Part shown: one piece after another, positions 7,704-40,600 of the stretch | How positions within the stretch are numbered: the stretch's first letter is position 1 | Layout of the letters: each line of letters starts with the position of its first letter | Assembly: GCA_951406725.2 (NCBI GenBank) | Contig: OX597821.1 | Location: forward strand, 99,138,001 to 99,202,000 | Origin: Octopus vulgaris | Taxonomy: Eukaryota | Direction of reading: 5' to 3' | Length of the DNA: 64,000 nt | The notes under the pieces: generated by a model | The model's database searches: none | Seen by the model: only the letters and a program-made list of their open reading frames with translations | Told to the model about the DNA's origin: nothing | Translations under genes and position numbers: made by a program

Positions 7704-7882
7704 ATTGAGTATATATAGACTGAAAAGAATAGTAGATAAAAAAGATCTTTGAGATGCCATTTAGGAACTGTTGAATCTAGGATGTTTTGTTGCTAAATGG
7801 CTCCCTTAACAACCAGACAGATAAATAGAATAAATGAGTGGTACACAGAAATTAAGTAAACACAATAGTTTAACAACAATAT

Positions 7883-7888
7883 TTTATT
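7883..7888 (-). promoter_or_regulatory. Candidate MPC1 polyadenylation signal AATAAA
   Basis: TTTATT on the plus strand, 107-112 nt after the stop codon. Confidence 0.5.
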
Positions 7889-7994
7889 ATTAGATACAGC
7901 AAAACAAATATAAAATCATAATTAGAATATAACAGAAAACAAATTTTCGCTATAAATTATAATTTCAAAATTAAGTTCATAATTACAAAAACTA

Positions 7995-8046
7995 TCAGTC
8001 AGTATTAATCACTTCTTTCTTCTTAGATGACTGGTCTGAAAAGTAG
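7995..8046 (-). CDS. MPC1: MPC1 terminal coding exon (52 nt, [17 protein letters not shown])
   Basis: tttttacag acceptor with matching phase, TGA TAG double stop, AATAAA about 110 nt downstream. Confidence 0.8.
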
Positions 8047-10098
8047 CTGTAAAAATAATAAAAAAATCAAATATTAATTGAAAATATCCCTGCATTTGTT
8101 CTTTTCATTAAAATTAGGAATTTTGTTGTTCATGTCAGCAAAAGTTAGTAATCTGTTTAATTTTTGATAGTTTATACAATTTAAATATAAATTCTCTTTC
8201 CACTAGATGTCTATATTATAAGACTTGTAATTTTTTGACGTGTGTGTGTTTATAGGTCTCTCTTAAAACTGAACCTCTGTCTAAATTAGGGATTTGTTTT
8301 TAGCCAACAATACCATATTTGGTATTATAACATAGCCTGCTTCAATGTGTTTCAATGAAAAGTCCATAAGTTGGTAATAAGATATCATATGCACTGAGCA
8401 ACATCACTTCTAATTTGCTTCAATAATCGAAAAATTCAGTTTACAATCAAACATTTTTTTATTTGATTCAACTGGACAATTGCAACATAATGTTCTCAGA
8501 GTGCCTCATTTACTTTAATGATGAAGTATCAAAATCATATAGAATTGAGTTTAGGTGTAAAATAGGACTTGACATATATGATCAAACCAAATCTTAAATG
8601 ATACTGAGTGCAAACTTTATTAGCAACTATGTGTTACAACAGGACACATATCTTTGCTTTGCAAATGCTGCTTAGTGGATAATAGATTTCACACATATTT
8701 CAAGATTGAGTATTTACTGCTAAAAATAATTCAGTTGTAATGCTTTATCCAACAATTTGCAAATTTAAATATTTAAAAATGCCTTCTCAACCAAACTAGC
8801 ATAGAAAATGGATACTGAACAGAAAAAGAAAGTTTATAAATTCAGTTAAATAAACTAAATTAACCCTTTCGTTACTGTATTTATTTGAGATGCTCTGTGT
8901 TTCTTCGAATTACTTTAAATATAACAAAGAATTAAGTAAAATAACATCGTTATCATTAAGCTAGTGTTAGGGACATAAATTGTGACTAAGGTTTGGTGGA
9001 AGATTTTAATTCAGAACTTTTGAAAACCAGACATTTGTACTAAAGAGCCAGAGCCGGTTTCAGCCGGGTTGGTAACGGAAGGGTTAAAGAAAAAAAACTT
9101 ACAAATGATTGACAAATCTTGTTCCCTGGGTCAGCTGTGCAGAAACATTGGTAAAATGACAAGCAAAGAGAAGAAGATTTCTGGGTTGAACTTTCCAGGC
9201 AAATCTCATAAAAAGTAATGAATAAATTGTAAGAGCTGAAAATAAAAAGTTGTATTTAAATACACAAATGAATATTTCAGTGTATATGTTGTTGAAAGAT
9301 CTTACCTAGTGTTATTTGGATAAAATAATTTTAGTGGTGGTTGTTATTGCTATTTTTCTTGTTGGCAGTAATCCTGAAAGTGATATAATGACTTTTTTTT
9401 CATTTTTCTAACATTCTGATCGTTAATGTCAAGTGTCTTTCAGCAATCAAGAAAGTTTAACCTTTGTTGCTAAGGTGTGCCTTAATTTTTACATTATATT
9501 TTGATAATAATATAGCTTTCATGACCAATTTACTAGTCTTATAAGCATTCTATGTAAGAGAATTGTGTGATCTCAACAAAAGTGTTTTTATTTATCTAAT
9601 TGTTTTATGTAGGGTCTTGTGTCAAAACAGCTTCTTGCTGTAAGCACACAATCAGCTAAAAGAAAATGTGGCACTTAGAACCATACAGTTTTGCAACTTC
9701 CTTGAACTTGTAAACCACATTCATCATTAGATGGTTACTCACAGCTTGTAGCTTCCTGAGAAACTTAACCTGCATATTTTTTAAATATATTATTAATGCT
9801 AATTGATTAGATGTAATGTATTGTTTGATGAGCTTCTGGTTTGATGAGCCTAACTGCATTTGACTCATATAGTATACTTAATGGATGATTTGTTTCTTTT
9901 TACTGGTTGTTGCCATCATCATCATCATCGTTTAACATCCACCTTCCTTGTTGGCATGGGTGGGTGTCACTAATTTAGAAGTATGTTTATTGACTTATTT
10001 CATTAATTTTTCCACTATTTTGATTTTTTGAGGAAAATCTAAAGAATTATGCAGAGTATACATTTTTTAACTGTCATTTTTCACTTGTGTGACATTTA

Positions 10099-10134
<36 letters not shown>

Positions 10135-16100: not shown

Positions 16101-19100
16101 GGCCTTAAAAAGGTCAACAACAAAGTAATGGACTACCTTGTACTTCAAACAATTTCTAAGAGTGTACCAAGTAACACCTAATCTGAATACTCCATCTGGA
16201 ATGTTGCCTGAAGAATTGATGTTTGCTAGAAAGGTCAGATCCGTCTTTGATAAGCTAATACCGAGAGAAAATAGGAAAAAGGTGAACAACAAATATACTT
16301 CAACATTTTAAAAGTTAAGTGACAAAGTATTTTTTAAAACCTATAGATATGATAGAGAAAACTGGAAGAATGTTATTCCTGGTAAAAGGAAAAAAGACAT
16401 ATTAACCAACTTAAAAAAAGATTCACAGAAAAAGTCACAAGAAAGGAAATCCCTATGGAAGTATTTCATGACATGTTTGAGGTACCAACACCCAAACAAT
16501 TTGAAACAACATGTTCTAACACCAGAAAATGGAAAAGAACAGAAACACTGGAATTGAACCCTAAGCAAAAGAGATATTAAAACTGAGTGGAGTTTAATTC
16601 TCAAAAGGGGAGACATTAGGGGAAACTAATTCTTAAAAGGGCGAATGTTGTGGAAGGATTCTGATCAGCCCCAAGTGACTGAAAGTGGACTGACACATTG
16701 CTATAAAATAAAGAACTGTCAGCAGTTCATGGTAAAATAGTTCACCAAGGATGAAGCATAAAAATGATTGATATATTCACATTACAATTTGCCAGAATGA
16801 ATAGATATGTTATTGCTTAAATTCTCACTGTTTTGCATGCACATAATGAAAAACCAAAGCTGATAAACTGAATTTGTACATGTTTAATATACAATCAAAC
16901 TGAGTAAACTCAACCCAATTAACTAGCCCTCAACACTCCACAGACATCCCATACATTAAACCTATATTAACTATGTATTAATCAAATCACTAGTGAGTGA
17001 CTGAACTGAGCACTGAAGTTTCCTATAGTTTTAGAATTATTAAATCTTGGTTTATTTATCCTTAGTTAAATCTTTTAAGTTTCAAACGCTTCCTACAAAT
17101 CTCTAAGGCAAGCTGATAAATAAGTATCTTCAACAAAGATGTTACAAGTGAATGGTTTACAGAAACAGACATTTTGAAAGTATCACCATATTTCTATAAT
17201 GATACTGGTTAAGATGAAAAACTCAACAGAACAAATTGATTTAGAAATGCAGAACTTTGTAAGCTTATTTATAAAGTAATATGATATTGCAAATGTAGTG
17301 AGAACTTAATGAAAGTCAAGAAACATAACTACCACATTTAGCAGCTGACTAATTCAGCTATACTGAGATTTAGCATAAAGAAGAATTCACTAATTCATGA
17401 TAAAATTTGGGATTAACAAATGTAATTTACACCATCTTCTATTAGTATATGTTTCACATTTTTTTTTTTTTATATTTCAACTGCAAAACTTAACTGTAAA
17501 TGCCAACACCACTAGTTGAGATTACAATAACCAAACTTATATCTAGAATTTTTTAGATTGATAACAAAAATTAATAAATTCAGTTCAACAATGACTAGGA
17601 CAATTAAAGTAAAATGATCTTAGCAAGAGTTATAACAAAGTTCTTATATAGCTTCAAGAAGCAACAAGAAGAAATAATGCCTACAAGATAACAAGTGTAG
17701 TTATGGTGAATGGGTTTGTAGCCAATTAACCAGGTGAGTTTTTTTATTGAGAATACTTAAGCTTGCTGCAGATATATGCAGAAATACTGAATACACTTGA
17801 GCTTTGTAAAGAACTACGGCCACCAAATGAAATAAATTGTAACAGTATATCTATGCATGTGCATATAATTCTACTACATTTCATTTTGTTGGTATAATCA
17901 ATAGGTGAATAACATGCTGAATAAAATTGGGTTACATAATCAAAATGCAGATAATTTATAAGACATGAAAAAAATCTAAAAGTAAGACTATTTCTTTTGC
18001 TTGATAATTATTGGTTAAAAAAAGGAAACTCTTTAGTTTCTACAGTGTTTGCAATATTTGTCCAGACACTGAAGCAAATAAGGCAAACACACAGAACAAA
18101 AACAATGATACTTAATATTTGAATTAAAAAAATCTTACTATTTCTTAATGATGTGTGCAACATGTTACAGCTTACTCTTCTCAAAACGATAAAAAGATAA
18201 AACATTACTTGAAAACATTCCTTTGAAATGCTACCATAATTAAATAACTACAGAATTTGTAAGTTTCTAGAAATAAGTATTTTATGAAAATATTTCATTA
18301 GAAAAGAAACAAGACATATAACTTTGATAAAGACAAATTATTAATGTCAAACATTATTTTTTTTAAAATATGTCCTTACCAGTTGTCATCTTCCCACTGA
18401 TGAAACCTGGATCTTTTTTAACGTCTGCTATAGCAGCCAGTGGAAGGCCCCAGTTGGCAACTGGAACAATAAAGTAAGATATAATAACAATGTTATGATA
18501 TAGCATAAAATTAGCAATGAACGTCATCATCATCATCATCATTTTGTGTTAGTTTTTCCATGTTGGCATGGGATGAACAAGCTTCTCCAGTGCAGTATCT
18601 TGCTATTTGTTATATTAGTCATTTGTTATATTAGTCATTTGTCATCATCTATTTGTAGAATCCAATTATCCAACATCATAATGCCAAGAAAGAAGTTTCT
18701 ATGTGGTTGCTTGACCTGCTAAAATTAGCTTCCAAATATTCCCCAAATTACACCCTCCTGTCTTAAAAAAAAGGGGCACAGTGGATAACAGAATCCTGGA
18801 CTTACAAGAGATGGGATGATCATATCTGGAAACCCTTTCATCATTGATCAAGAGTAGCCTGGAGGTTACCTTCACTTGGATTGTTTAGCACATCTTTACT
18901 CAACTTCAGACATACTATATATCTGTATAGCACAGTCATCAAACTAGTATGTCATTTCATCTACAACCAATTTTTTTTTTTTATTATAGCTCATCTGTGA
19001 ACCATCATTCTTGCATGTAAATGTTATACATCCACCAGAGCATACTTGCTTCATTTTTCTTTTCCAGCAAGCACACATTTTTCTCATTGAGTGCCTATGT

Positions 19101-21115
19101 TTCTACACGTGGACCATCATACAATCTGCCCTGCACTTAGAGAAAGAGACCCTTTATTTCCTTCAGAATAGTCACCTGAAATTTTCAACCCTACAACTCC
19201 CATTGCAGCCTAATAAGGTCACCTAGGTATTAGAAGCTCTCGATAGTATTCAGTGATCTTTCTGGACAGTTTAAAAAATTCAGTTAATGAGTGCTCTTGC
19301 TACTAACTATTTTTGAATGCTTGTTACACAAACCTTCACAGTATTAGTTTTTATTCAGAGTTACTGCTGTCCTAGATGGATGACCTTCACTACTACTTGT
19401 CTCCTCTGTTCAGAGTACTCAACTTCCTAGATGGATTGCCTTGAATACAGCTTGGTAGTCACATCACTCCATGATGGAGAGAGTAGATTTAGAGAGTTCT
19501 TAGTTACTAAGAGGATGTAAGGGAAATGAGCATAAAACTGTTTCTATTATGAGAGAGGAGGAACTTGTAATGGTAGTCAGAAAATAACAGAGTCTCAATT
19601 CCCAGTTAGCTGAGAATTGAGGCTGTCTTCAATGTAAGTGAGAGAATGTCTTTTTTTCATTTGGACATTTGTTTTAAGAGATAAAGTCTTGTCAGATTCT
19701 AGCAAAATTGTTCAAGAATATTTCATGAACAAACTTGATTAATATTAATTCTGCAGACAGTAATCTAGAATTTTTCTGAGTGAAAGTTCTAAATATAAAC
19801 AATAAATATAAACATTGTTCACTTAGTTAATCTTTCCCATTCAATTCTTGCAGTACTATAACATCTGATCTACACTTTACATCACTCATCAATGACAGAA
19901 ATATGTTTTTCTTCATTTGGACACTCCTTTCATCAACGTTAAAGGTTTTTTGTTTTTGGAAGCTAATGAAAATGTTCGAGAATATTAAACTAAATTATCC
20001 AATACTAAATCAACTCCAGCCTTCAAAAAATTTTTTTTGTAGTCAATATCTATACAATATCACCATCTTTATGCATATTTCATGCAGTTTGTCTTTTCAC
20101 ATGGTGAGAGAAGTTTTTTTTTTGTTTTTAAAAAAAGTAATAGATCTTTGAATGCCTCAACACACTTAGCAGATAGTTTCTGTTATTTAAATGATCTAAG
20201 AAAATATCTAAACAACAGAAACAATCTTAATACATTTAGTGAGCTTTCTAAGCAGTTCATGTACTTCATTTTATGGGTGATTCAGGCCCCAAAGTTTGCT
20301 TAACATGGTTTCTACAGTTGAATGTTCTTCCCAATGCCAACCACTTCACAGGTTTCTTTCATTGTGCTGCTTTTGTGGAACTAGTACTAATGATGTCACC
20401 ATGAAGTTTGCAACACTAAAATTCTCTTTGACTAAATGGGGCTACAGTAGGGAGGGAGATAGGAAATACAGGTGCATAAGAAATTCAGGTGAGATATAAC
20501 AGGAGTGAGATATGACTGGAGATAGGAAATGGGTGTGAGGTGAATATAATGAATGAAGAACAGTGTTGAGGGATGATAAGTAGAGATGATAAGAAAAAGT
20601 AGGTAGGCTTGAGGGGTAGACATAGAGACTGGTGGATAAGGAGTGAGGAGTGACCTATGATACATGAGTTTGGGGAAGATAAGGGAGAGTAAGAAATGAC
20701 TTATAATGCATAAAGGAGAATAATAATAACTATTAAAGTCAGGGAGAGGATGAGAGAAAGAGTGGAAGAAAGAGATGACATATTCAGTAGGCTGCAAAGT
20801 GAGTGGGTAGAGAAGCAGGCATATTACATGAGCAGAGTGAAAAATGTATAGTAGTGAAGAAGGAAAGACTATTTCATGACCCGGGAGTATGATCAATGTA
20901 AAATGTGGATAGAAAGAGAGTAACAAGAATAAAGGCTGGATATCAAGTGAAATTGTTCTGGTAGTGACCTGATTAAGTATGCAGTTCTGCTCACATTTAA
21001 TAACAGCAACACAATACTGAAGGTTAAGAGACGATGGTTAGTGGGAGTGACATGAGGAGGAAATAGGGTTAGAGGAAATTGTGTATGTGTGTGTGTATAC
21101 GTGCATGCATGCATG

Positions 21116-21183
<68 letters not shown>

Positions 21184-24100
21184 CAGTTTCACTGAAATGG
21201 GTGGGTTGACATCTCACCTAATTCTAGTTCTTCACCTGGAGACTTGGAGATCTGGACCAAACCCAACTGGACCTATCTCTAAAGGCGCTGAGTTGCAGGC
21301 CTAACTTTCTTTTGCTGATTTTTGCTCTTGTCACTGCCTCATACTCCCTTAGAGCAGTGCTGATCAGGTCTATGTACCTGGTGTTCAACACTATGGTGGT
21401 GACATGGTTCTCCATGTCCTAGTTCATGTAGAATGCCTCTTAATGCCTCCAGTTTCTGCAGTAGTGGCTCTTGAGTGAGTACATGCAGAAGAGACAGAGA
21501 CAACTTTCACAGACCAAGCACATGACACTGAATGGTTCCAATAGGTAAGAATTTACTCAAACTACCAAACAGACACTGCAGTACATTGCAGCAATCTAGG
21601 CATGGAAGATGGGACCAAAAACAGTTGCCATGAAAACAGCTGTCAAGTATTGGTGGTTGACCCTATCAAAAGCTTTTGATTGATCCAAATTGATCAGAGC
21701 CCCACTCACTCCAGGTTCATTACCCAGCCTCTCTATAATGTATCACATGAGGTGGAACATATTGTGGATAGATCTGCTTGGGATGGTACATATTGCTAAT
21801 CAGTCCCTCAACAAGTGCTAACTTCTTCACTAACACTTATGTCAGAATTTTGAAATCTGCATTTAGTAAAATTATAAGCCTAAAACTATCAATTTGATCC
21901 CCTTAGTAGTGCCATGGCTTTTGGTTCCCAGAACTAGGAATTCTTCCATTCTACAATTTGTGGTAAATATATGCCAAGAGACCTCCAAGCATGTGACATA
22001 TAAATAAAAATTTATATGATGTAGGGTAGACCATCCAAACCAGGAAATTTTCCTCACTCCCACCCCCTGCAGCCAATCCTGTATTTTCATGGTCGTTTTC
22101 AATTTTGCACAACACTGTTTCACTTGCCAAGAGTTGCAATAGACCATCAAAGTAGTTACTGAAGTCCATCCAGTGTTCCAGTTCCCCAATTGTCCCAAAC
22201 AGTTGTATGAGGAGCTGCTGATATACCTCATGCATCTGCTCAAGCTCAAGTAGCATGCACACATTTTGGTCACCAAAGACCAAATCAAGGCTTTGTTGTC
22301 ATGTTGTGCTCCTACCACTTGGACACACTGAGTGGCTTTCATTCTCTTGTGTCCTAGAGAAAAACAACACAGACTTTTTATGCTTAGCAATGAACAATTG
22401 GTTAAGAGCCAATCTTTCTGCAGGCACATCAGATGCTATGCCTGTCCCAAGTGCCTCTTCAAAGTTTCTATTTTCTACTGTTTTCTTCTATCATTACTGC
22501 CTTACTAAACCCAGTTGATTCTATTCTAATCACCTTTTCCGGTACAAACTACCATTTGTTGTTGACAATTGACCCCTATCAATGCCCACTTAACTAATTC
22601 GTTAATTCAGTCTCTGTAAGATTAGAGCACCAGGAGTGATACATTCCACTTCATGTAACTGGGTCCCTGCCTTCAGGGGCCTATCTAGGTTGACTGTACA
22701 AATCACAAATTTGTGGTCTGTGTGGTAGGAAATTTTAAATAGTGAACAACCCATGCCATCTTTAACTACAAATGTATAAAATACTCCATCTAGATATGAC
22801 CTTGATGACCCGATGTGGATTTTCCACGTCCACATAGGTAGATTTGGGAAATTCAGTCAGTACCGTCAAACAATCAGAAATGTCAGAGGAGGCTGAAAAA
22901 GGCTCTTACACTCTTCTTCTCTCAGTTAGCCCTGTACAATCCAAATGTGCATTGATGATGGCATTCCAGTTGCCCACAAGTACTAAATACTGGGACACAC
23001 CGAAAAAAACCCAGATGCCTAAAGAAATCCAGCTGTCTTGCCCCTGTCAGAGCATAAACAGCTACTAGTTGGAAGTGACCCCCTTCGCTACTGTTCCCAT
23101 TCAGGATCATCAACTTACCTTCTGGGTCCACGAAAATGCTCTGTACCATGAGATACCTACCTTTCTGAAATAATACTGCAGTTTCTCCACCCCACCCCTA
23201 TTCCCAATTGACATGAAAATAAACAATCATGTACTCCCTGAAAATGAGTATTTCACTTTGGCTGCACCACATCTGAGGTCACTGAGCAGGTGGTCCTGTT
23301 TCCAAGACAACCCAGCATTCCCATTGCTTATTCTAAATAGGGTTATGTTAGGCAACAGAGGAGGAGGGTGAAAAGAATCTGTGGAGGAACAGATGTTTCA
23401 TTCCTCATATAGCAGAGTATTTTCCAAAATCAGTTCTTTTGTTCCAAGAGCCATCATCTCCTTTGATTTGAGAAACCATGTTTTTTTGTTTTAAAATATT
23501 GAATTTTGCCAATTTAAGTTCCTAAATTCATGAATATTTCACAGAGCCAGCTCACTGTAGAGAAAGCAAGTCGGTTTATTAAATTTGATAGTACAAGAAT
23601 ACAAATAACAATCTTTGAAACAACAAAATTAAACAAAACTCATAAATTTTGGACAGGTGTCGTTCCTTTCCTCCTCTTCCTCCTCTAACAACAACGATTT
23701 CAAATTTTGGCACAAGGCCAGCAATTTCGAAGGAAGGGATAAGTTGATTACATCATTCTATTGACCCCAAAAGAATGAAAGGCAAAGTAGACCTAAGTGG
23801 AATTTGAACTCAGATTGCAAAGACAGATGAAATACCACTAAGCATTTTGCCCGATGTGCTAATGGTTTTGACAGTTCACAACCGAATGATGATGATGATA
23901 ATAATAATGCCCTGATGCAGTACCAGGCAGTGGCTCTCGTGGCGTCTGATCTTAATTGATAGGAAGTGTTAACATGTACATGCTTTGTCTTGGTGTAAAA
24001 GATGGGCTACAGCAAATATTCTATTCAATACTACAGATTTGCTTGTCAGTTGTTTAACCTTAACCAGTTGACCATGTCCCTTGGTGGCTGACAGTATATG

Positions 24101-24456
24101 CATCTCTGATCATGTGCAGGAGTAGTGGGGAAGCATCAAAGCCACATGTTAGGAGGAATTCTTTGGGACTTGAATAATTCCCCTCTGGAAACATGAGTGT
24201 TTCATTCATCATCCTTAAACAACCCTTCCTCATGGACTTTTTGAGTGGGATGGGCTACTTGACCTAAGAAAATTCTAACTGGTTCCATCTGCAAGATCAT
24301 GTACTGTTCATCTTGATATGAGGTCACCATCTTGTGTACATATGGTCATGATGCATATGCCTGGTGCACCTTTATCAGATAGGTGGCCATGATGGATATA
24401 TTGGGCTCCAAATGTTTGTACCCATGTTGCTTTGATGTCATGCACCACTCTCTCTC

Positions 24457-24489
<33 letters not shown>

Positions 24490-27400
24490 GCCCTGATGCA
24501 GTACCAGGCAGTGGCTTTCATGGCTTCTCATCTTAACTGATTGGAAGTGTTATCATGTACTTTGTGTTGTCTTGGTATAACAGATGGGCTACAGTAAATC
24601 TTCTGCTCAATACCACAGATTTGCTTGTCAGTTGTTTGATCATAACCAGCTGAGCATATTCCTTAGTGACTGACAATATGTGCATCTCTGATCACGAGCA
24701 GAGGTAGTGGGGGAACATCATAACCATGTGTTGAAAGGAATTCTTTGGGGTCTGGATAATTCATCTTTGGAAACATGGGTGTTTCATTCAACATCCTTAA
24801 CCAACCCTTATGTGTGAGATAGACTACTCGACCTGTAGAAAATTTTAACTGAGCCCTATCTGCAAAGTCATGCACTGTTAATCTTGATATGAGATCACTA
24901 TGTCGTGTATATATGATTGCAATGCATGTGCCAGGTGTACCCTTATCAGACAGATAGTCGTGATGGGTTTGCTGGGTTTCGTATATTTACCCCAGTGTTA
25001 CTTTGATGGCATGCACTGCTCTCTCACTCAAAAATGAGGAGGAGGAGTGGGGGAAGAGGGAGAGGAGGGGGAGAAGAAGAAGAAGAAGAAGAAGAAGAAG
25101 AAGAATAGGATTATGACATTGGTACTTGGGTGTTGAATGTCATCATCATCATCTTCATTTAACATATATTGTCCATGCTGGCATGGATTGGACAGTTTGA
25201 CTGGGCTGGCACACTAGAAGGCTGTGCCATGCTCCAGTCTGATTTGGCATGGTTTTCTATGGCTGGATGCCCTTCTTAATGCCAACCACTCCAAGAGTAT
25301 AATGGGTACTTTTACATGCCACCAGCATGGGTGCCATTTGCATGACACTGGTATCTGCCACAACTGTGATTTTGCTCAGCTTTATAGGCCTCCTTTTCAA
25401 GCATGACATAATGCCAAAGGTCTTGTTCATTGCCTCTTTGAGGCCTAACACTCAAAAGGAAGTCAGCCACTCTGACTCCATGGAGTCCAACATAGTGAAC
25501 AACCAATTAATCAAAGCTGTGTGGAAAGAGACCCTGTGAGACCTGACAACAGGCAGCTGTCTGCTTTCACAGAATCAACCTGAGCAAACAAGACTGAGTG
25601 CTCTGAGAATAAAATAATAATAATAATAAATTCTCTGAAGAAATATCAGGCATTGGCTCCCATGGCTTCTGGTCTTAACTGATTGGAAGTGCTAACATGC
25701 ACATGTTTTGTCTTGGTGTAAGATGGACTACAGCAAGTATTTTGTTCAATATCACAGATTTGCTTGTCAGTTGCTTCACCTTAACCAGCATGTCCTTTAG
25801 TGGCTGACAATATATGCATGTTTGATCATGAGCAGGAGTAGTGAGAAGAGCATCACAGCTAGGTATTGAGAGGAATCGTTTGGCATTTGCATGATTCACC
25901 TTGGAAACAAGGGTGTTTCATTCATCATACTTAAACAACCCTTATTTTGGGACCTTTTGAGTGGGACTATTATCATTTAATGCCATAAGGTGGTGAGCTG
26001 GCAGAATCATTAACATATTGGACAAAATGCTTAGCAGCAATTCGTCCGTCTTTGCATTCTGGGTTCAAATTCTGTTATGGTCAACTTTTGCTTTTCATCT
26101 TTTGGGGAGCGATAAAATAAGTACCAGTCATTCACTGAACTTGATATAATTGACTAGGGCCCTCAATACAAAGTTTCAGGCTTTATGCATATAGTAAAAA
26201 AATTATTATTTAATGTCATTCCTGCTTGCATGAGTTATTCATTTCTATATTAAATATTAATAGAATAAACTTACCTGGTCCCCAAAAGTGCTACAAAAGA
26301 AAGAAAAAAAATTCCTGAATAGATATTAAAATGATTTTAAGTGGTAGAAACAATGCAGAACTTTTTGAGAAATTTATATTCAAAAATGACAACTACTTGA
26401 ATATGAAATAATTAATAAGAGTCTAATAAAAGCATTTTATACATGTATAATCATATTTATAAACTAAAAAATAAAAATAAAGATATTTTGAACATATGTT
26501 ATATCAAAACAGTCTCTGAAAACATTCTAAAAAAATGTTTAAGCATACTGAAGAAAAGAAAAAGCAATATCTGTAAGATGGCAAGGAATTGAACATTCTC
26601 TAAACTTATAAATAACAATGAATATCATCAGTTTAGTAGACACAAATTATGAAGCTACATGCTGCCATTGAACAAACTATTCAAAAAGATGGTGGCTGTG
26701 TGGTAAGTAGCTTGTTTACCAACCACATGGTTCCGGGTTCAGTCCCACTGCGTAGCACCTCAGGCAAGTGTCTTCTACTATAGCCTCGGGCCAACCAAAG
26801 CCTTGTGAGTGGATTTGGTAGACGGAAACTGAAAGAAGCCTGTCGTATATATGTATATATATCTGTGTGTGTTTGTCCTCCTAGCATTGCTTGAGAACCG
26901 ATGCTGGTGTGTTTATGTCCCCATTACCTAGCAGTTCGGCAAAAGAGACCGATAGAATAAGTACTGGGCTTACAAGAGAATAAGTACCGGGGTCAAGTTG
27001 CTTGATTAAAGGCGGTGCTCCAGCATGGCCTCAGTCAAATGACTGAAACAAGTAAAAGAGAAAGAGATATCCCCCCAGAAAACAAAAGAAAGTTGAGAAA
27101 ATGATAAAACACAACTCCTTATTCAGCCACCTCCCTGGCACTCACTTTTTCACCTGACCCCTATCATGCTATTTTTTTGACAACTTCTCTTCTACATTTT
27201 AATTCCTCTCACATCATATATCTCCTATACTGCTCATACCATTGCACTCTAGTTGTTTTCTCTCCCTTTATCTCCCTGCGTCTGCCCCTCAATATCATCC
27301 CACATTTTTTTATAATTTGTAATTTTGCATTTGTGTTTGTGTCTGTATTTGTCTCCCCACCACCATCAATTGACAACCGATGTTGGTGTGTTTGCATCCC

Positions 27401-27860
27401 CGTAACTTAGCTGTTCGGCAGAAGTGACTGATACAATAAGTATCAGGCTTACAAGGAATAAGTCCAGGGGTTGATTTCTTCAACTAAAAGGTGGTGTTCT
27501 AGCATGGTCACGGTCAAATGACTGAAACAAGTAAAAGAATAAAAAAATACCAGAAGAACGTTCCATACCACTAAACCAAGAAGGTTTTTTTAATATGTAT
27601 GATGTATTTTAAGGCTAAATTGTAAGTCTATTTACATTTGCATAGCCAAGATATTTTGGTTGGATTATATAGTTATTGGTTTTACACATCTTTCTATATT
27701 CTGTAACTGTCACAATATAGAAACATTTCTCATGGCACCAGTACACAATTTACAGATACTTACATCTTTTGTGTTTTCCATGAAGTTTTCACGGAGTCAA
27801 CTAGTTACTATTATTTACATAAGTGTAAAATTCAGCATAAGTGTAAAATTATCAAATAAT

Positions 27861-27925
<65 letters not shown>

Positions 27926-30900
27926 ACTGTCCTTTTCAGCAGACCTTTTGTTCATTTGGCAGACCTGGTGGGAGTGAGAGTATAAGCAGAGATGATTGTT
28001 GCTGTGCTATTCTGCAAAACTAGTCTAAGCTTAAGTACCCTATCACATACTCTGACTACTTCAATCACTTTATTTACCCATTTCTCTGCTAGAAGTATGT
28101 CAACACCTCCTAGCCCATCACTGTTGCCCTCCCAGAAGAGTTTATACCTATGCCTTTTACCAATGAGGAACCTGGCTGAAGCTCCCCTTCCACTGAACTT
28201 CTTGGATGCAGCACGCATCAACACATCTCCTTTCAAGCATATCAACAATCTCACTAGACATACCTTTCAATGTGCCTACATTGACAGTACCAACTCTGAG
28301 GGAATGTATGGGGAGGAGGAACTGTGGCTATCAGCATCCAAAAAGAAGATTGTAATGAGCATTTGCCAACAGACATGTCATAGCAGTTGTCCTCGCATTT
28401 AATCCACCATCATTCATGTTACACTTGCTACCTCCATTGGAAGTGGGTGCTATATCAGCACTACTTACAGCAGTGTTAGTACAGATACCAGTAAATACAT
28501 ATATTGGTTAACTGATTAATTATTATCACTGCCATTGGTTGTGGATGCCATATACTGGCAGTAGTACAAAGCAATGTTAATATAAATGCACATAACATTT
28601 GGATGTCTAACTGCAGATAGGCATCCAAATGCACCTGGAACATCCAATGCCAAGTTCTAATAAACTGCAATGGTGATATATATATATATGTAGGAACTAA
28701 ATATTTATGCTGGTGCTTGCCTTAATTTTCACTATATAATATACATATATAATTATTCACAAGGAGATTGGAGTGAGTAAGTTATTTTATTACATAAATT
28801 TACAATTGTTTCTTTGACATTTGATCTCAATAGTATTGCAATATTATTATATAATTGTTGCAACTATAGATTCTTGAGATATCAATATACTGATACAATC
28901 GATCATTGACTCTTATATTATGTATAAAATCCATTGGTTTATGTCACAATTCAAATAGGATGCAGAAGAGAGGTAAAAAAGAACAACTCAATAGAAATAA
29001 TGTTTTGTCACCAGAAGATATATAAATCATTTGGCTTGCTAAAACTCAGTGCTTTCTTTAATCATTTTCTTTAAAGAAAAAAAGAGAAGAAAAACAAATC
29101 TATTTCATCAGCCATTAAGAAACTGTAGACATAGTCCTGTACCATTATCACAACGTGATAAAGGTGTGTGTGTGTGTGAGAGGGAGGCAGACACCTAAAT
29201 ACATGTCAACAAAGAGGCCAAATGTCAACCCCCACTACATACAGACCCCCCCCCACTGGACAAAAGACAAAGATAACATTAATGTATTAAAGTGCATGCC
29301 TTACTTACAAAGGAGAGGAAGAAAAAAGAGGTAAACAGAAATTTTGTTTGCTTTTTTCAACAAAGTTATCGTCATTTAACATCTGCTTTCCATGCTGGCA
29401 TGGGTTAGATGGTTTAACTGAAACTGGTAGGCTGTAGGGCTACACCAGGTTCAAATCTGATCTTGTATGGTTTCAACACCAACCACTCCACAAGTGTAAT
29501 GTGTGCTTTTTACGTGCCACTCACATGAGACCAGCATCAGCCATGACCATGATTTCACTTGGCTTGACAGGTCTTCTCAAGCATGGCATATCACCAAAGG
29601 TCTTGGTCACCTATCATTGCCTCCATGAGGCCCAATGTTCAAAAAACAATAGCATAGGTTCTGTTTGTTTGGTTTTTTTTTTAATACCACAAATATATTA
29701 CAATATATTTAGTCTTTTTGAGGTGGTGTTAGCAGTGAGTTGACTATGCTTTAACTGAGGAGATTTAATAGGGTTGAAACATGCCAGGACTTTTCACTCC
29801 GCTACAGCATATCTCCATTTAATTTTGGTCGTCAATTAAAAGTATGGGAGTTCCTTCCCTTGTCCCTTTTGAGAATAGCTTTCATTAATCCTAATTTGTA
29901 ACTTGTACTTCCCTATATTTTCATTAAAAAGAAAGCAGTCCTTCCCTATATTTTCATTAAAAAGAAAGCAGTCTTGTGAAATTTTCCATTATTAAAGCAT
30001 ATTTAGTTTACTCAATATGAATTCAATTGAAAACATTTTATATTTCAAACATCACAATCTCACAAGTATGTCTTTAAAAAGATTGATTCAGATCTAAGTC
30101 TTTGAAAATAAATTTACTTGTTAAATTAGCTGATTTGATTAATTAATAGTACATCATTACATTCTATGTACTGTTTTTCTTCTAATCTTGCAACAATTTT
30201 CCTTAATCACATATCTCACTTTAAGTTCTGACTTTTCAATATCTGACCAATTCTTTCTCAAAGTGGCCAGTAACAAATCTGATTAGTTGTCCGAAGCACC
30301 AGTAACCATAATAATATTCTTGTTTTAGTAATAATTCTTCAAGCAAAGTCTTTTATCTGGAATATGAATAAGTTTCCTTGCTTGCTAAATATTATGATGC
30401 ATACAAACTTCAGTTGCAATAAATGGTGCAATATTAAACTGACTCAAAAATTCTTTGTGAAAACATTCTGAAACTATACATAACTATCAATAGTCTAAGT
30501 CTTCTTTGATAAAGAAAAAGCTCAGAGAAAATTTCTTAATAGCTTATGAATAATAAAAAGTATGTTTATAATTTTCAAAATAGAGCTGCATATCATAAGT
30601 TTTCAGATATATCCAAAACATTTATCCTGAAAAATTAAAATTAAATATACATTGGCAATAGATAACAGAATAATTGAGGATGATGTTCTAGTACAACACA
30701 TTTCTTTTATAGTGTTTTACATAGAAATAAAATGACAGAGTAATGTGGAAGTGTAATATCAATAAATGTTAAAACATGGCCACAGCTCATGAGCTGAAAC
30801 TAGAATCAATCAATCATTCCCTAGAATACTGTGTAATAAGTATTTTATAAGATGTTCAAAGAATTAGGTTAATTGATCAAAACAATGGAAAATATGCACA

Positions 30901-32172
30901 ATACTGAAGAGTTTTAAATGACAACATATGAAATCAACTAATCTCCTTCAAAGTACCTCATAAACATCCAAAAATGGTAGAGATGTCAAATCTCCAGATA
31001 GTATGCTTACAGCAAAGAATGGATACTTGTAGCTAGATTACCGTTTAAAAAGTATTAAAATCAGGTTATTAACAGAAATATTTGATTGAAATATTGAAAA
31101 TACTCACAGTACTGTTGACCATTTAACAACATCATATGAAAAAGAAAATAAACACTATGTTAAAGAAAATAAAGGAAATTATCAAACAAATCATCATCAT
31201 CATCATCATCGTTTAACGTCCGTTCTCCATGCTAGCATGGGTTGGACGGTTCGACCGGGGATCTGGGAAGCCAGAAGGCTGCACCAGGCTCCAGTCTTAT
31301 CTGGCAATGTTTCTACAGCTGGATGCCCTTCCTAACGCCAACCACTCCGTGAGTGTAGTGGATGCTTTTTACGTGCCACCTGCACAGGTGCCAGGCGAGG
31401 CTGGCAACGGCCAGGGTCGGATTGGTGCTAGAATTTAGTATTGTTGAGAAATTTCTAACAAAGAATGGACTCTCTATCAGTGGCATGCAAAGAAGCTGAA
31501 CCACTCCCATACTACCCACTTCAGAAAAATTCTAAGCATTAAGTGGTAAGAAAAAATTCTTACCACAGAAGTACTCTTTCATGTTGAACTGTCCAGCATG
31601 CACACAATCTTGATGCAGTCACATCTGCACAGGATAGGTCATGTGGTTTGCATGCTAGATCATTGGCTCCTAAAGAAACTTTTGAGTCTGATGTTTCTGA
31701 GGAGGCTCAAAGATATGCTACAAAGATGGGTAACATTCTAGTATTAATTATTCTACCATATTAGAATATAATAATCATTTCCATATAAGATGGTTAAGAT
31801 GTATAAATAAATATAACTTTTGTAGTGGAAGATTATAACATGATTTATAGTAAAATTGTTTCTTTAAGATTGTTTTTCAGTACATTACTCATATTGAGTA
31901 ATTAACATGTGTAACTGTTGGTCCATAGATCAACTTGTGTGTGTGTGTGTATGTATGCACGTGCGCACACACACACGCACAGACTGCAGCCATGCTGGGG
32001 CACCACCTTGAAGGGTTTTAGCCAAACAAATCAACACCAGGACTTATTTCTTAAGCCTAATACTTATTCTACTGGGCTCTTTTGCTGAACCATTAAGTTA
32101 CAGGGATGTAAACACAGCAACACCAGTTGTCAAGTGGGGGACAAACACGGACACAAAGATATACACACATAG

Positions 32173-32211
<39 letters not shown>

Positions 32212-34805
32212 CACACACACACACACGGCAAGTATCTTTTAGTTTCCATGTACCAAATCTACTCATAAAGCTTTGATCAGCCCAAGGCTATAGTAAAAGA
32301 TACTTGCCCAAGGTACCATGTAGTTGGGAAGCTAGCTTCTTACCACACAGCCATGCCTGAACCTACATATATTTTGGACAACACCTGAGCACACATATTA
32401 CAACCTTCATATCTCCCTTTTCTTTACTCTACCATCACATTTATGCTCTGATCCTTGTTACTTGTAAGTATACCTGGCACTTAACCATCTTTCTCCTGCT
32501 CTCTCTTACACTTTTGTTGTTTCCCACTCTCTCTCTCACTCTTCTCTTGCTCTTTCCTCTGGCAACTGAGTAGCCACATATCTCCTCTACAGCAGCATAC
32601 CTATTTCTGCCCTCATTCTTGGTTGCTTTCTCTTTTTCTCTCTCTCTCTCTCTCTTGCTGGGTAACCATGTACCTCCTCTATACCAAGACACCTATTTCT
32701 GCCTCCCTCTAACCTTTCATCATCTGACACAAGTTCCCCTCCTCAAATGCTCCTGCCCCTCTCATAATTCCTTTTCTTGTGAGTTACTCAGTGACCCTGC
32801 CAGTTCTGGTGCTATGTAAAAAGCATCCAGTCTTTACTGTAAAGTGGTTGGCATTTGGAAGGACATCCAGCTGTAAAAATCAGGCCAAAACTAACCTTGC
32901 CTGTGCTAGTGCCACGTGAAAAGCACTGAGTCCACTCTGTGTAGTAGTTGGTGTTAGGAAGGGCATCCAACCATAAATACACTGCCAAAACAGAGTAGAA
33001 CAGGTTAGTTTTTCTACCTGTGATACGTCCTACCCATGCATGCATGGTATATGGATCTTAAACAATGATGATGATGATAATAATATATACACACACACCA
33101 CACATGCATATAATATGTATATTACATGGAAAAATGCGAGCAAGAGAAATTATATTCTTAAGACTATATATCTGGAAAAGTACAGGACATGTTATTACAT
33201 GTGGAAAAGATCAGGCAAGTTTTTACAACTGGTAAAGTACAAACAAGAAAATTTTTACTTAAAATATTGCAGCTAAGGATAAGAATTTCAAAACAAATAT
33301 TTAGATTTAGAAAATGTTAGCTTTTACTAAAACTGAAAAATTTTATCACAAGTTATTACTTCTATTTGTTATTACTTGTTACTAGGTTCTTTGAAAGAAA
33401 GCAAGCAAAATGTATACCAAAACAAGAATGAAGAAAATGAAGAAATGGTACACAATTACAAATACAAACAACAGGACATTAACAACAGGTGTCTTTCGAC
33501 TAAGGATGAATTAAATTAAGCCAGTGTGTGTGGAAGTGAAGCCTTACAGCAGGAACATTAGATATGAAAGTCATGGGAAGGAATAGGAGATGCTACACGG
33601 ATGGTAGTCAAACCAAGAAAGGTCAGGCTATGTGGAACACTGATCATGTGGAATGAAAGGAAAGAGGTAGGGGTCAGAGGGATAGAAGAATCTTTTTTAG
33701 CCAACATATAACTGGTCTGAAAGAGAGAAAATAATTATAACAGTTGCAATATGGTTGAAATTGTTGCAGTTGGTCAGACAACTAGAGTATCAGGTTACAA
33801 GACAACAAATGAAAGGATAAGTCAAACAAAAAACAGACAGACTAGCAAGCAGATAGGTAGAGATGACAATGTGTGTAGAATAACAATGAGGTAGTCAGGC
33901 TAATAGATAAGAAATGGTTAAATAAACTTTGTTTTCAGGCAGGTGGTAAATATTTAAGTGCTAACTCTGGCGTTTTATATAGACTGTCAGTGAAAAATTG
34001 AATAGCCTTTATAAAATATAAAAGACACACATATATACACATTCACTAGTGTACACACACACACATAGGTTAATATTTTATCATATATAGAAAACAGTAT
34101 GTGAATATGTATGTGCATGTGAATATGTATGTGCATGTCTATACCTGCATATCTAAAATGCCCTTAATTCGAAGAAATTATTTGTCAGTCATTCATTGCA
34201 TAAATTGATTTTGTTTATTTTTTGTTCTGTGGCAGAGTCGATGCATTTGTAAAATGTAAATATTATAAAGTTTAGTGACTCCATTCTGGCACATATTGCT
34301 ATATGGCCACTTAATGGAATTTTCCTTGTTTTTCCATCATCTGTTGATTATGTACGCTCATTCTTCTATGTAGCAATAATCTTGTTAGTCTGATGTAATT
34401 TTGTAAACATCCACAGTATGTTAGAAGTGGTATTCTGATACAGTCAGATTTAGAGCGTTTACAAGCTTTGTTATTGCGTAGCTTGAACAGACCATAGAAA
34501 TGGCTAGTTTTGCATCTGAAATTGCTTAAATAGCCAAATCCTTTAGGTTTCTTTTGGTGTACGACCTTTCAAGTATAAGAACCTGATCACTGAGCTGCAT
34601 TCAACTGCTGCCACTGTTATAACACCTTAGTCCACTTCAGCAGTTATAAAAGACAAACAAATACTAGTGGAAAGCTGCAATTTAGAATGTGACATGTAGA
34701 GACATTTATGATTATACCTGTACAAGTTCTGTTACCTGCAATAACTGGAAGTGGGTCAGGGGAAATCTTCAATGACCACCCCTCGTGTGTGTGTGTGTGT
34801 ATGTA

Positions 34806-34841
<36 letters not shown>

Positions 34842-35142
34842 CGTATATATACATACACGGTAGCGAGCTGGTAGAAACGTTAGCACGCCGGGCAAAATGC
34901 TTGGCGGTATTTCGTCTGCCGCTACGTTCTGAGTTCAAATTCTGCCAAGGTCAACTTTGCCTTTCATCCTTTCAGGGTCAATTAAATAAGTACCAGTTAC
35001 GCACTGGGGTCGATATAATCAACTTAATCCATTTGTCTGTCCTTGTTTGTTCCCTCTATGTGTAGCCCCTTGTGGGCAGTAAAGAAATAAGATACATATG
35101 CATACACATACAAATATATACATACATATATACACCTATACA

Positions 35143-35174
<32 letters not shown>

Positions 35175-37609
35175 GTGTGTGTGTGTACTGTTGAATGATG
35201 GTAAGATCAACAAAAAAAACTCCATTTTGAGAGATATTATTTAATAAACACAGTATGTTTTTCTGCTAGCCCCTTGATAATATTTTCGCATTTGATTCCC
35301 AATTCTAACAATTTTTATATTTTGCGTCTAATTATTTCTTTGTATAATAGTGCTCACTTGCTTAATGAATATTGCTTTCATTATTTTATCACACCCATAA
35401 TCTCTCTTTATTAAAAAAAGCATCACGGTAGTCCAACAACAGAGGGAGAAGCAATTTGTCAAGTTTTACCTTCCCCTCAAAGCAACATAAAGATTACAAT
35501 TCAACAGCCCATCTGTAAGCTTTGCAGTGTGTGTGCGAGAGAGAGTGGGGAGAGAAAACATTGCAATCAATGAATGAAATAAACATGAAATGAAAAAATT
35601 GTATAAATAAAAGGGCATTACTATAGATGTATACACCCCCAACTTTGTTGCTTCATAACATCCAGAAAAATGGATACTTTTTAACAAAATTTTCTACAAA
35701 TACTGCTTAGATGTTGTGGCTTCAGAGTGTATAGGGGTTTATGGGAAAGAATTTTTGCAAGGAAGTGGCGAGAGGAGTTTCAGAAAATTCACATGCTCTA
35801 ACTTTTTTCCCTCATAACATTCAGGGAGATGGGTATCTTTTGATGAAAATTATACAAATCCCTTTCAAACAGCATAGATTACGATTATAAAGAAATTTGT
35901 GAGGAAAATTTTTCAGGGATTTTCCCCATTTTTCTTTTTAAGCTACAACCTTCGAAATGATGGGGTTGGTGGGGTGGGGGCTATCTTTGTATTAGGTCAT
36001 CAAGTATGAAATTTGTAGAAAAGAAGTTTGCTAATGTTTTATAAATACAAGGAATAGTTTTATTCATCAAAGTATGCACCCATATTGTCAATACACTTTT
36101 GCCATTTCAGCAGTAGCTTGTCATGCCTGGAACTGTAAAAGCCTGGCAATCTAGAATCACTAAAACCTTGGAAGGCCTGTTTTACAGCATCATCATTATC
36201 ATCATCATCATCGTCATTTAACGTCCATTTTCCGCGCTAGCACGGGTTGGACAGTTCAACCGGGGTCTGGGAAGCCAGGGGCTGCACCAGGCTCCAGTCT
36301 GATCTAGCAGAGTTTCTACAGCTGGATGCCCTTCCTAACGCCAAAAATTAGTAGGTTCCAGCGAGTAGGTTCCATCGTCAGAATAAAATTATTTTCCTAT
36401 CAAATACTTATCCAAATTCTGGAAGAAGTGGTAGTCAGTGGGAGTAAGATCAGGTGAGTATGGTGGATGATGGAGAACTTCCAACACCAACTCCTGTAGT
36501 TTTGCCAATGTCATTTTTGTGACGTGTGGTCTGGCATTGTCTTGCAATAAAATAGGAGTGAATCTGTTGACTAATTGAGGCTGTTTTTGACTAAGTTTCT
36601 GCATCATTTGGTCTAGTTGGCTGCAGCGTACTTCAGCCATGATTGATGAGCCAGGTTTAATGAAATCATAATGGATCACACCTGTGCCAGAACACCAAAC
36701 ACACACCATCAGCTTCTTTTGATGAATTTTGCTTTTGGACTGTGTTTTGATTGCTCATCTTTGTCCAACCATTGTGCTGAACGTATACGATTGTTGTATT
36801 GGATCCATTTCTCATCATATGTTACAATTCGATTCAAAAATGATTAATTTTTGTGATGAGAAAGAAGCATACTGCAGATTTCCAAATGTTGCTGTTTCTG
36901 ATTTTCATTGAGTTCATGTGGAACCTACTTATCCAACTTTTTCACTTTACCAATTTGAACTAGGTGAGTCAATATTGTTTGCTTGCTAATACCAAACAAC
37001 AATGATAATTCACAGGCACTTTGAGATGGATCTGACTCAACGGTGTCTTTCAGTTTGTTGTTATCCATCTTTGTTTCTGGGCAACCACATTACTCATTTG
37101 TAAGGTCAAAGTTACCAGAATGAAATTTTGCAAACCAATTTGATACTGTCTGCTGTGTAATAACATTAGAATGAAATACTCCATTAATATTCCGAGCTGT
37201 TTGTGATATTGTATTTCCAAGAAGGAACTTATATTTCAAAACTATACGAATTTCTGACTTATCATCCATCTCTAAACAAAAATAGCAAAAAACGATTTAT
37301 AAATACTTTATAAAGCACAAAATGAGTTAGAAGAAAGCAGACCTTTCCGTTGTCACTGCCTGATATTTATGATTGATCTTTCAAAATATTTTCTTTCTCA
37401 ACTTACTCAAGATCTTTTGTTGTTTATAAATGGGAGAGAGATACATAGAGAAAGATAGAGAGTAAGAGTCCGAGAGAAAGGAAGAGTAAGAGAGTGGGAA
37501 AGTGAGAGAGATACAAAGAGGGAGAATGTGGTGATAAACAACAGAAAGGAAGCAACAGAAAGTAACAACCACACTCTTACCCGCACATAGAGTGGGTCAC
37601 CGTAAGCTA

Positions 37610-37656
<47 letters not shown>

Positions 37657-40600
37657 ACTGCGTGGCATCTTGGGTAAGTGTCTTCTGCTATAGCCCTGGG
37701 CCAACCAATGCCTTGTGAGTGGATTTGGTAGACGGAAACTGAAAGAAGCCTGTCGCATATATGTATATATATATGTATGTGTGTGTGTGTTTGTGTGTCT
37801 GTGTTTGTCCCCCTAGCATTGCCTGACAACCGATGCTGGTGTGTTTACGTCCCCGTCACTTAGCAGTTCAGCAAAAGAGACTAAATGACTGAAACAAGTA
37901 AAAGAGTAAAAGAGTATGCAAATATTTTTCCATATAAATATTTGCCTTGTTCTGTGTATATCAGTTTATTGATTACCACTGATCAGACTCATATTGATAA
38001 AATGAAAACATACAGCTTTCAATGAACATTGTTCAAATTTGCAAATTCTTTTAATGTTAGTTGAGTGATTTTTGTTGATTAATATGTATTTTCATCAATG
38101 TTTATTATTAAAAATATAAGGATATTCTAAAAGAAAAATAGTTATAAAATACTTAAAAGAAGTTTAAACGTCAATATATTATTACGAACACTTTTTATAT
38201 AGAAAGCATATGCTTGAAACTGTAATGTCATTAATATTCTACTGATACATTCCTTACATCTTTGAAATTATGCTATAACACCTTAGATCCAACTTCTATG
38301 GATTTTTTTTTTTAGTTGCAATGTTGATATGTAACACCACCAAGAACTGCACTATGAAGACTAGGGAACTATATATAGAACATCCCAGAAGCCCTCAGTG
38401 AATTCTATATGGCTGACTGACAGCATAGAAATAGGTGAAGCTTATTTCTCTGTCTCTTAAAGTACAATTAAGATGCTCTTCAGTAGACTAAATCTAATTC
38501 TTGTTCTTATATAGTTCAGAACATCAGAGTATCTTTCATTTTGTTTCTCAGCAATTAAGAGAGCAATCCCCTTGTGATGCTTACTAGCTTCCTCTCCCAT
38601 CTCTCCTGATGTAGACATGACTATAGAAATGAAGAGCCCTTTTCTATTTGGAGCACCAAGTCATTTTCTTCTTCCATTCATGTCTTGCATAAACCCAAGA
38701 CAAAGTCTTGTTTATATATGTAGGTGCATTTGGATGCATAACACTGATGTTCAACAATGATTTTTTCAAGGGGACCCCAAACTCCAATTCCAGACAACAT
38801 CTAACCATCATTTTTCAGCAGTATTGCAATTTCTCATCACGTTTGTGTCTAGTGGGAAGAGTTTGGTTTTCACCTTCACACCATTACACATCTTTCGCAT
38901 CAATACTACCTCAAAGACCCAAACACAATTATGTCTCATGGACACAAATCCACCCCGCTTTCTGCATGAGAGGGCATGGTCAATGTTGTTTTAGAGTCAC
39001 ACTGGCAGTAAATTTGTGTTTGGGATTTTCCATCAGTACCTGTAATTTTTACTCCTGTACCAGCAAAGATTTCATTTGCCCTTGGTTTAAATCAATCTCT
39101 TACAATTAACAAAATTTTCAGAGTAACGGGATAGGCCATATTTAGGACCAGTAGTGCAAAGTTCATTCCACCATTCTGTTTAGTATTAATTAAAATCATT
39201 TCTGTCTTGCAGTGCAAATATTTAAATATCACATAATACATGTTTCTTATTACAATTAATTCACTGTACATATGTAAATACATATGTATTGAAACAATAA
39301 ATATATGGAAATGCAAAACATTGTTGGGTCATTCATTCATGTTTTAGTACCCAGCTTCCTACCTCTACCGTCTCTTCTACCTAAGTACCATAACCAACCC
39401 AACAAAATGTTTCTTATGTGATATGTTAACAAATTCAGAACTTCTTGAAGCTTTTGATTCAATCAAATGTTAACGGAATTTGATAATAATATAGGCAATA
39501 AAATTTCTCACGGTTTTAAATTATGACTAATGACTACTATGAATAAATGAATAGGGATGGAACTTTTGATACACAAAATGCACTAGAGAAGTATTGTTTT
39601 ACTTCGTTTTGGTATCTGGTTTGCAAAATTCTTTATATGAATTCATGTGTTGAAACAAATTTTGTTGAGTCTAAAGAGATTCATTATGCCAATATAATTA
39701 AAACACATACCGGTTCAATTCTACTCATTTATTAAATATCTGATTGTTTTGTTTTTGTTTGTCAAAGCTCTTACATAACCTCTTGCAATCTTTGTCATTG
39801 AAAATGGTAGCAAGAAGCAACAAAAGAGCTTTGACAAAAACAAAACAATCGGATATTTGATAAATGAGTGAAATTGAACCAGTGTGTATGTTAATTATAT
39901 TGGGATAATGACCCCACAGCACGAAATATTGGTTTGTTCTCAAGAAAAATAAGGTTCTTAAGAAATGCTTGCTTTGGGGTGGGAGGTCAGTTAAACTCCG
40001 ACATGAAAAATATAAAATTTAAAAAAAAAACAAGAAAGCTGGTTCCATAGACTCGCATGGAATCGTACATGATAATGCTTAAAACATACATCCAGAGAAA
40101 TTTAGTTGCTAGTGCAGTTTCCAACTCGGAAACTCTAGCAATGTCTATTTTCTTTCGGATTTCCTTTACAAAAAGAAAAATATCATTCAGACTTCACAAA
40201 TCCATATTAATCAGGTACCTTACAGATTAACCTTATTACCTTCACACGCATAATCAATGTCAAGGCCACAATTCGCGCAAACAACGGTCACTGACAAGTA
40301 GTTTCCCTTTCAGCACCTATAAGCCAAAAACATTGCTATAAAACTTTTCCAGTCCGACCTGCCTCCAAAATAGCCAATTCCAGGACTAAGGCGTCTGTAT
40401 CTTTTATTATGATGCTTATGCTTCTTTACACTTTTATTTATTTAACTTAGTAATGCCAAAATAAAAGAATAAATAAACTCTTTTTACTATGAGGTAAGAT
40501 CTATCAGCGCTCTTTTAGTTTCGCTGCCCCAAACGAACAAGAAATGTCCAGGAGAAGCTTTACACCACTAATTCTTATTTGTTCTACCTGTATACTTTCC

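Follow-up and report, generated by a model that had tools for sequence, protein, structure and literature searches.

Tandem 4-nt and 16-nt microexons in the octopus MPC1 gene and their likely inheritance from an ancestor shared by animals and fungi

Background

How can exons of 4 and 16 nucleotides (nt) be maintained in a messenger RNA when they are separated by introns of 5-10 kb, and how old is such an arrangement? The question is raised by the MPC1 gene of Octopus vulgaris, which lies on the minus strand of the window analysed in this work, a stretch of 64,000 nt (contig OX597821.1 of assembly GCA_951406725.2, positions 99,138,001 to 99,202,000; all coordinates below are positions within it). 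As assumed from orthology, the octopus MPC1 protein transports pyruvate as a heterodimer with MPC2. Our reading, to which we give a probability of roughly 0.8, is that octopus MPC1 mRNA carries tandem 4-nt and 16-nt exons, both likely constitutive, which were likely inherited together with the three flanking introns from the animal-fungal ancestor. It is built on the exons themselves, on one spliced contig that includes both, and on the three intron positions observed in coral and Mortierellaceae DNA. The human 4-nt exon was known already and, in the accessible parts of its description (PMC9929638), is compared among mammals only; the present comparison extends it to corals and fungi. No earlier description of the tandem 16-nt exon, or of the pair in both fungi and animals, was found in the literature searched.

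Structure and transcripts of octopus MPC1

Six exons on the minus strand together give an MPC1 frame of 118 amino acids (aa). The coding part of exon 1 (41496..41566, 71 nt) begins with an ATG in strong context and ends in AG, its phase-2 donor GTGAGA being placed inside a Ser codon. After intron 1 (31112..41495, 10,384 nt, GT..AG), the 4-nt exon 2 (31108..31111) supplies the last base of Ser24 and the whole of Thr25 between a CAG acceptor and a GTGAGT donor. Intron 2 (26291..31107, 4,817 nt, phase 0) separates it from the 16-nt exon 3 (26275..26290), which encodes His-Phe-Trp-Gly-Pro and the first base of a Val codon, is bordered by a TAG acceptor and a GTAAGT donor, and constitutes the sole match to CAYTTYTGGGG on either strand of the window. 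Intron 3 (18461..26274, 7,814 nt, phase 1), referred to below as the 16/81 intron, is absent in human and common to the coral, annelid-like and Mortierellaceae loci; it is followed by exon 4 (18380..18460, 81 nt), exon 5 (9103..9235, 133 nt) and exon 6 (7869..8046), the last containing the end of the frame (the stop ends at 7995) and the 3' untranslated region up to the limit of the contigs. An initial annotation, made from the letters alone, had proposed the two microexons and introns of these sizes; the coordinates bear out the sizes, and the canonical AG/GT borders, the Ser/Thr codons and a spliced contig from run X1 confirm the exons.

The identity of the gene is given by exon 5, which matches the Pfam profile PF03650 (MPC) with E 2.4e-12 and is the single match across the 2.8-Gb genome. 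The complete model is identical at 117 of 118 residues to protein P0253, labelled O. sinensis, and at 109 of 118 to P0257, labelled O. bimaculoides, both being annotations and not independent RNA; P0253 is closer to human MPC1 (E 2.1e-41) than to MPC2 (about 2e-06).

Contigs from 4 of 24 listed public runs were compared over window positions 7800-26400. The junction of exons 5 and 6 is listed in all four runs and that of exons 4 and 5 in three. Run X1 is called RNA by guess, and its joints coincide with intron ends. One of its contigs departs from the genome where exon 4 starts, and the 30 letters printed beyond this point run through the remaining bases of the 16-nt exon and the 4 nt into the end of exon 1, differing from the window by a single synonymous change; the predicted junctions between exon 1, the 4-nt exon, the 16-nt exon and exon 4 are all read in this one contig. 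Synonymous A-to-G changes (coding strand) distinguish X1 from the window at 18426 and in the last codons of exon 1, representing either an allele or RNA editing.

The exon pair in other animals and in fungi

Metagenome contigs were scanned for the 16-nt exon flanked by both splice sites, which gave 85 loci, many of them repeats of one species; in 53, exon 4 follows downstream in register. Upstream, 55 of the 85 have a 4-nt site with the Ser/Thr codons and a consensus donor, joined directly to exon 1 in three of them; the 132,266 bases searched contain no such site on their reverse complement, and 128,945 downstream bases have none either. Exon 1, both microexons, exon 4 and all three introns are present in 27 loci, with 26 clean reads (20 distinct) and the same phases; L013 was excluded from the clean count, its exon 1 being cut by the contig end. 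Eighteen loci in which exon 4 and a 4-nt site were both missing were regarded as chance matches or as having short flanks, and were left out. In several loci, introns 4 and 5 agree in position as well.

Relatives of some loci could be named by protein identity and by a tree of 76 columns and 70 rows, in which only close groups are resolved. Locus L058 groups with stony corals (100/94), and an Orbicella protein matches it with 98.6% identity over 76 aa. Among fungi, L068, in which the gene is complete and has introns measuring 198, 405 and 83 nt, is 98.6% identical to Entomortierella parvispora, and L036, 100% identical over 76 aa to Mortierella alpina, carries the 4-nt site, the 16-nt exon and exon 4. 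In these two Mortierellaceae loci and in L018, intron 4 is absent (exons 4 and 5 are fused) and the microexon introns are kept. Annelid-like loci with longer introns cluster with the leech Helobdella (100/93). They contain exon 4 and the two microexons, and exon 1 was not found on the contig. The full layout is also found in an AT-rich group with introns of 46-69 nt and in two GC-rich groups (L015/L031 and L016/L033). A placement of L015, L031, L016 and L076 beside a chytrid (93/43) was not relied on. For a neighbour of the AT-rich group, Rotifera ranked third, which serves as a lead only, and in the same group a Mlf1IP (myeloid leukemia factor) gene stands tail to tail with MPC1 (L044:3645-4019, minus strand, and L005).

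The introns around this microexon pair thus range from about 50 nt in some species through 90-2,000 nt in corals to the 5-10 kb of octopus. This natural series lets one ask how a 4-nt exon survives the shift from intron-based to exon-based recognition, and whether a set-back pyrimidine tract of the human type arises whenever introns grow.

Recognition of the two microexons

The initial annotation had noted a displaced pyrimidine tract and a strong GTGAGT donor at the 4-nt exon, and both are real. Pyrimidines occupy 14 of 17 positions at -44..-28 of the acceptor versus 11 of 24 at -27..-4; the distal pyrimidine-rich region as a whole extends over -70..-28 (31139..31181, minus strand) with a candidate branch motif at about -51, and the absence of AG from -43 to -3 makes it a long AG exclusion zone. 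No TGC (UGC) was found within 70 nt of this acceptor. At the 16-nt exon the pyrimidine tract is near the AG and the only TGC is at -67.

The closest known system is exon 2 of human MPC1, likewise 4 nt, which Koh, Shin and Kim (2023) describe as constitutive in the accessible parts of their paper (PMC9929638). According to these parts, its skipping is undetectable even when cycloheximide is added; inclusion requires no more than 67 nt of upstream intron and a 6-nt donor; the pyrimidine tract at -67..-43 is needed, and branch points are found mainly near -68 and -64; and even a zero-nt exon is still spliced, in two steps. The human and octopus exons are alike in their 4 nt, their Ser/Thr codons and the distal pyrimidine tract, whereas the TGTCTG repeat given for the human acceptor in those parts is absent in octopus. 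The octopus exon can be regarded as the equivalent of human exon 2, as had been proposed. Human MPC1 differs in having no second microexon: judging by the primers printed in the same source, its exon 3 opens at the His codon and contains the Asn-Trp-Gly stretch, in agreement with the earlier suggestion that it is unsplit.

In coral loci with an 87-nt intron 1 the tract adjoins the AG, and the pyrimidine fraction at -10..-4 is 0.98 as compared with 0.43 in octopus. Since the tract is distal in octopus and human, where introns are long, and proximal in coral, these data suggest that it shifts back as introns lengthen, towards a design like the human one.

Where introns are short (50-200 nt), the spliceosome can pair the sites across the intron and exon length matters little. 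Tiny exons would cost nothing in species of this kind. As octopus introns grew to 5-10 kb, recognition would have had to act across the exon, and the 4-nt exon may cope in the way the human one does, by means of a consensus donor and of a branch point and pyrimidine tract 30-70 nt back, a spacing that would let the factors at the two exon ends avoid collision. The 16-nt exon would be served by its strong ordinary acceptor and GTAAGT donor. Joining of exon 1 to the 4 nt first, which is a plausible order, would remove the size problem. Coral-type contigs L030, L066 and L067 fit this order: exactly intron 1 is absent from them and intron 2 is kept, L066 being otherwise 99.9% identical to L029, and they are likely partly spliced RNA.

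A separate element is located about 125-155 nt downstream of the 4-nt exon. The stretch 30983-30950 (minus strand) has a GT donor at its end, and 7 of 9 residues agree (E 0.28) with the N-terminal part of P0255, the isoform X1 model of O. bimaculoides. Either a cryptic donor or an alternative first exon may be present here.

Skipping of the microexons

Skipping of 4, 16 or 20 nt breaks the frame in each case, as had been predicted, and leaves 39, 35 or 37 aa, respectively, with the stop 171-181 nt upstream of the last junction. Exclusion of this kind would do away with the protein. Nonsense-mediated decay (NMD) would be expected on skipping, provided that the vertebrate rule applies in molluscs. 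The initial annotation had gone on to suggest an NMD switch, and a first alternative to constitutive inclusion takes up this thought: regulated skipping of one or both microexons would lower mitochondrial pyruvate import through NMD or, when only the 4 nt are skipped, yield a 95-aa carrier, and this function would explain the long retention of the exons. We consider it improbable. The position of the stops suits it in all three cases, and so does the retention of the pair across distant lineages. Moreover, omission of the 4 nt puts in frame an ATG at 41501 (41501-41499, minus strand), giving a 95-aa MPC1 identical to the O. vulgaris-labelled protein P0252, and similar starts are seen in models of O. 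bimaculoides, Argonauta and a spider (Caerostris). Yet such 95-aa models are the expected output of an aligner unable to place 4 nt, and with the first ATG in strong context they read as artefacts. The internal ATG also needs a Cys codon after A and is not shared by Met-Ser lineages, and retention has not been universal, the introns having been lost in several lineages.

Evidence on skipping itself points the same way. No skipped form was seen among our data, which is a weak test: exon 1 joined directly to the 16-nt exon occurs in 0 of 85 loci, of which only about four look RNA-derived. The human exon, in the parts of the report that could be consulted, is not skipped with or without cycloheximide in several cell lines (PMC9929638), and the NMD switch finds no support here. 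The UGC motif, described as the mark of eMIC/SRRM4-regulated exons in the portion of PMC8797185 available to us, is absent within 70 nt of the 4-nt acceptor. Neural microexons of that class resemble the MPC1 pair in being very short and in having an AG-free zone and a set-back branch region; as far as that portion goes, they are tissue-regulated, carry UGC near the 3' splice site, are of bilaterian origin and are poorly shared between phyla. The MPC1 exons, unlike them, shift the frame, have no UGC near the AG and are common to corals and fungi; their presence in coral and fungal loci is at odds with an origin within bilaterians.

Equally doubtful, in our estimation, is the broader claim that the 4+16 pair has been kept since the animal-fungal ancestor as a built-in control point, at which conditional skipping shuts down or shortens the carrier. 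Were it true, the pair would be among the oldest known splicing switches, acting on a central metabolic gate and predating the neural microexon machinery. Constitutive inclusion of both exons remains the preferred reading; skipping would be mostly error, cleared as a premature stop rather than used as a switch, and the function of the pair is most likely ordinary.

A tandem arrangement has a parallel in plants, where a 5-nt and 12-nt pair in a peptidase M1 gene is, in the consulted sections of PMC8831610 and PMC9915684, likewise adjacent, not a multiple of three in length, long conserved and often unannotated. It belongs to another gene and kingdom and, according to the same sections, was gained by splitting in streptophytes, in contrast to the MPC1 pair, which appears to be ancestral and to have been lost later in places. 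MPC1 was not found in the text of this plant work or in six supplementary files, as far as these were accessible, and the accessible part of an octopus-including bioRxiv preprint (10.64898/2026.09.05.749416) leaves MPC1 unmentioned, although its supplements could list it. Our literature search, in which the human study was the one paper retrieved on the MPC1 microexon, found neither an MPC1 microexon outside mammals nor the 16-nt exon, which subscription papers, splicing databases or closed supplements may nevertheless list.

Age and loss of the introns

Three introns within 20 coding bases, in the same phases, are found in a mollusc, in corals and in fungi, and the 4+16 pair with its three introns is therefore likely to have been inherited from the opisthokont ancestor. 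The initial annotation had presented the 16/81 intron as a lineage-specific gain, naming vertebrate loss in brackets; coral, annelid-like and Mortierellaceae loci have it in the same phase, which refutes the gain, and the bracketed loss is the version that fits. Likewise, the 4-nt exon had been called an ancient bilaterian microexon: ancient it appears to be, but not confined to bilaterians, given that corals and fungi have it. Human exon 3, presumably 97 nt long, would combine the 16-nt and 81-nt exons. Human likely lost the 16/81 intron and kept the 4-nt exon, so that its state is one of partial loss, and some other lineages would have lost introns 2 and 3. In P0016, P0138 and P0233, open reading frames that read through intron 4, the stretch from Ser to Gly is unbroken. 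Locus L076 is without intron 1, which was either lost or already spliced.

A second alternative, which we regard as very unlikely, is that the 16/81 intron, possibly with others, was gained independently in octopus and elsewhere at a favoured insertion site. The octopus site does follow CAG/G-like protosplice letters, the intron is absent in human, and the stretch is unsplit in some open reading frames. Repeated insertion would nonetheless have had to place three closely spaced introns of the same phases side by side in octopus, coral, Mortierellaceae and two or more unassigned groups. Introns 4 and 5 likewise match in several loci, and the same Val codon is where mis-predicted proteins of a bivalve, a tick, corals and several fungi break. 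Intron positions common to animals and fungi are frequent.

Several observations weigh against constitutive exons of opisthokont age. Inclusion of the microexons in octopus comes from one contig of one run, the loose ends considered are 24 of 1,371 rows, and contigs lose rare forms; the word constitutive is, for octopus, taken over by analogy from human. The comparison of pyrimidine tracts sets one octopus case beside one published human long-intron case, while annelid-like loci with longer introns have a flat pyrimidine profile (0.55-0.69) and GC-rich loci with short introns have no clear tract. The scan pattern detects the split state only, so that it gives no frequencies and makes losses visible indirectly. 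Locus L068 is the sole four-exon fungal locus with a near-identical named protein, and the comparison has no root outside opisthokonts. Finally, coral contig L075 is without intron 4 and keeps introns 1-3; this, too, is likely partly spliced RNA, and intron removal is therefore not strictly in 5' to 3' order.

Chance expectation for the 4-nt site

The 15,205 nt from exon 1 to the 16-nt exon contain one site of the form YAG-YACN-GTRAG, as against 0.013 expected from 300 third-order Markov simulations. For TACT with a YAG acceptor and a GTRAG donor, one site was seen and 0.003 expected; for AG-TACT-GY the chance expectation over the same interval is 0.38. A second TACT site at 19855 was ruled out, being downstream of the 16-nt exon and having a GC donor. 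That the 4 nt derive from elsewhere, or that a single 20-nt or 101-nt exon was missed by the assembly, can hardly be credited: a 4-nt stretch is indeed unmappable by its own letters, and the looser AG-TACT-GY might arise by chance, but there is just one site with a consensus donor in the interval, the window is free of N throughout and exon 5 is unique in the genome, and the same 4+16 layout is plain in other species with short introns.

Annotation of MPC1 and minor observations

The initial annotation had expected automated annotation to mis-model this gene, and it does so in five of the seven proteins of the octopus cluster, which have a wrong N-terminus, the other two having the correct 118 aa. 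Both O. vulgaris-labelled proteins are wrong: the N-terminus of P0160 is a read-in of intron 3, letter for letter as in the window, and P0252 omits the 4 nt. Public models from Mortierellaceae, a tick, a bivalve and corals break just before Val-Ala-Asn-Trp-Gly, and in models from Patella, Glandiceps and Spirometra a wrong residue pair replaces Ser-Thr. Tandem microexons explain the faulty MPC1 models of octopods, limpets, a bivalve, a tick, a hemichordate, tapeworms, corals and fungi. In three vertebrate-like MPC1 proteins (P0094, P0096 and P0148) the N-terminus looks like exon 1 in the frame that lacks the 4-nt exon, which is probably the same annotation error.

Two further elements of the window lie away from the microexons. 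At 800-2000 (minus strand) there is a broken frame that, judged by eye, we take to resemble the 3' end of a non-LTR (long terminal repeat) retrotransposon. A contig of run X3 covers the part of intron 4 at 14333-13611 (minus strand) with a depth of 12.5, versus 286 for the main exons, and ends at a GTAAGT donor followed by 29 more letters. This part agrees at 35 of 37 residues with the N-terminal end of P0002, an O. bimaculoides model, with a stop present in the window, and is possibly a minor alternative first exon.

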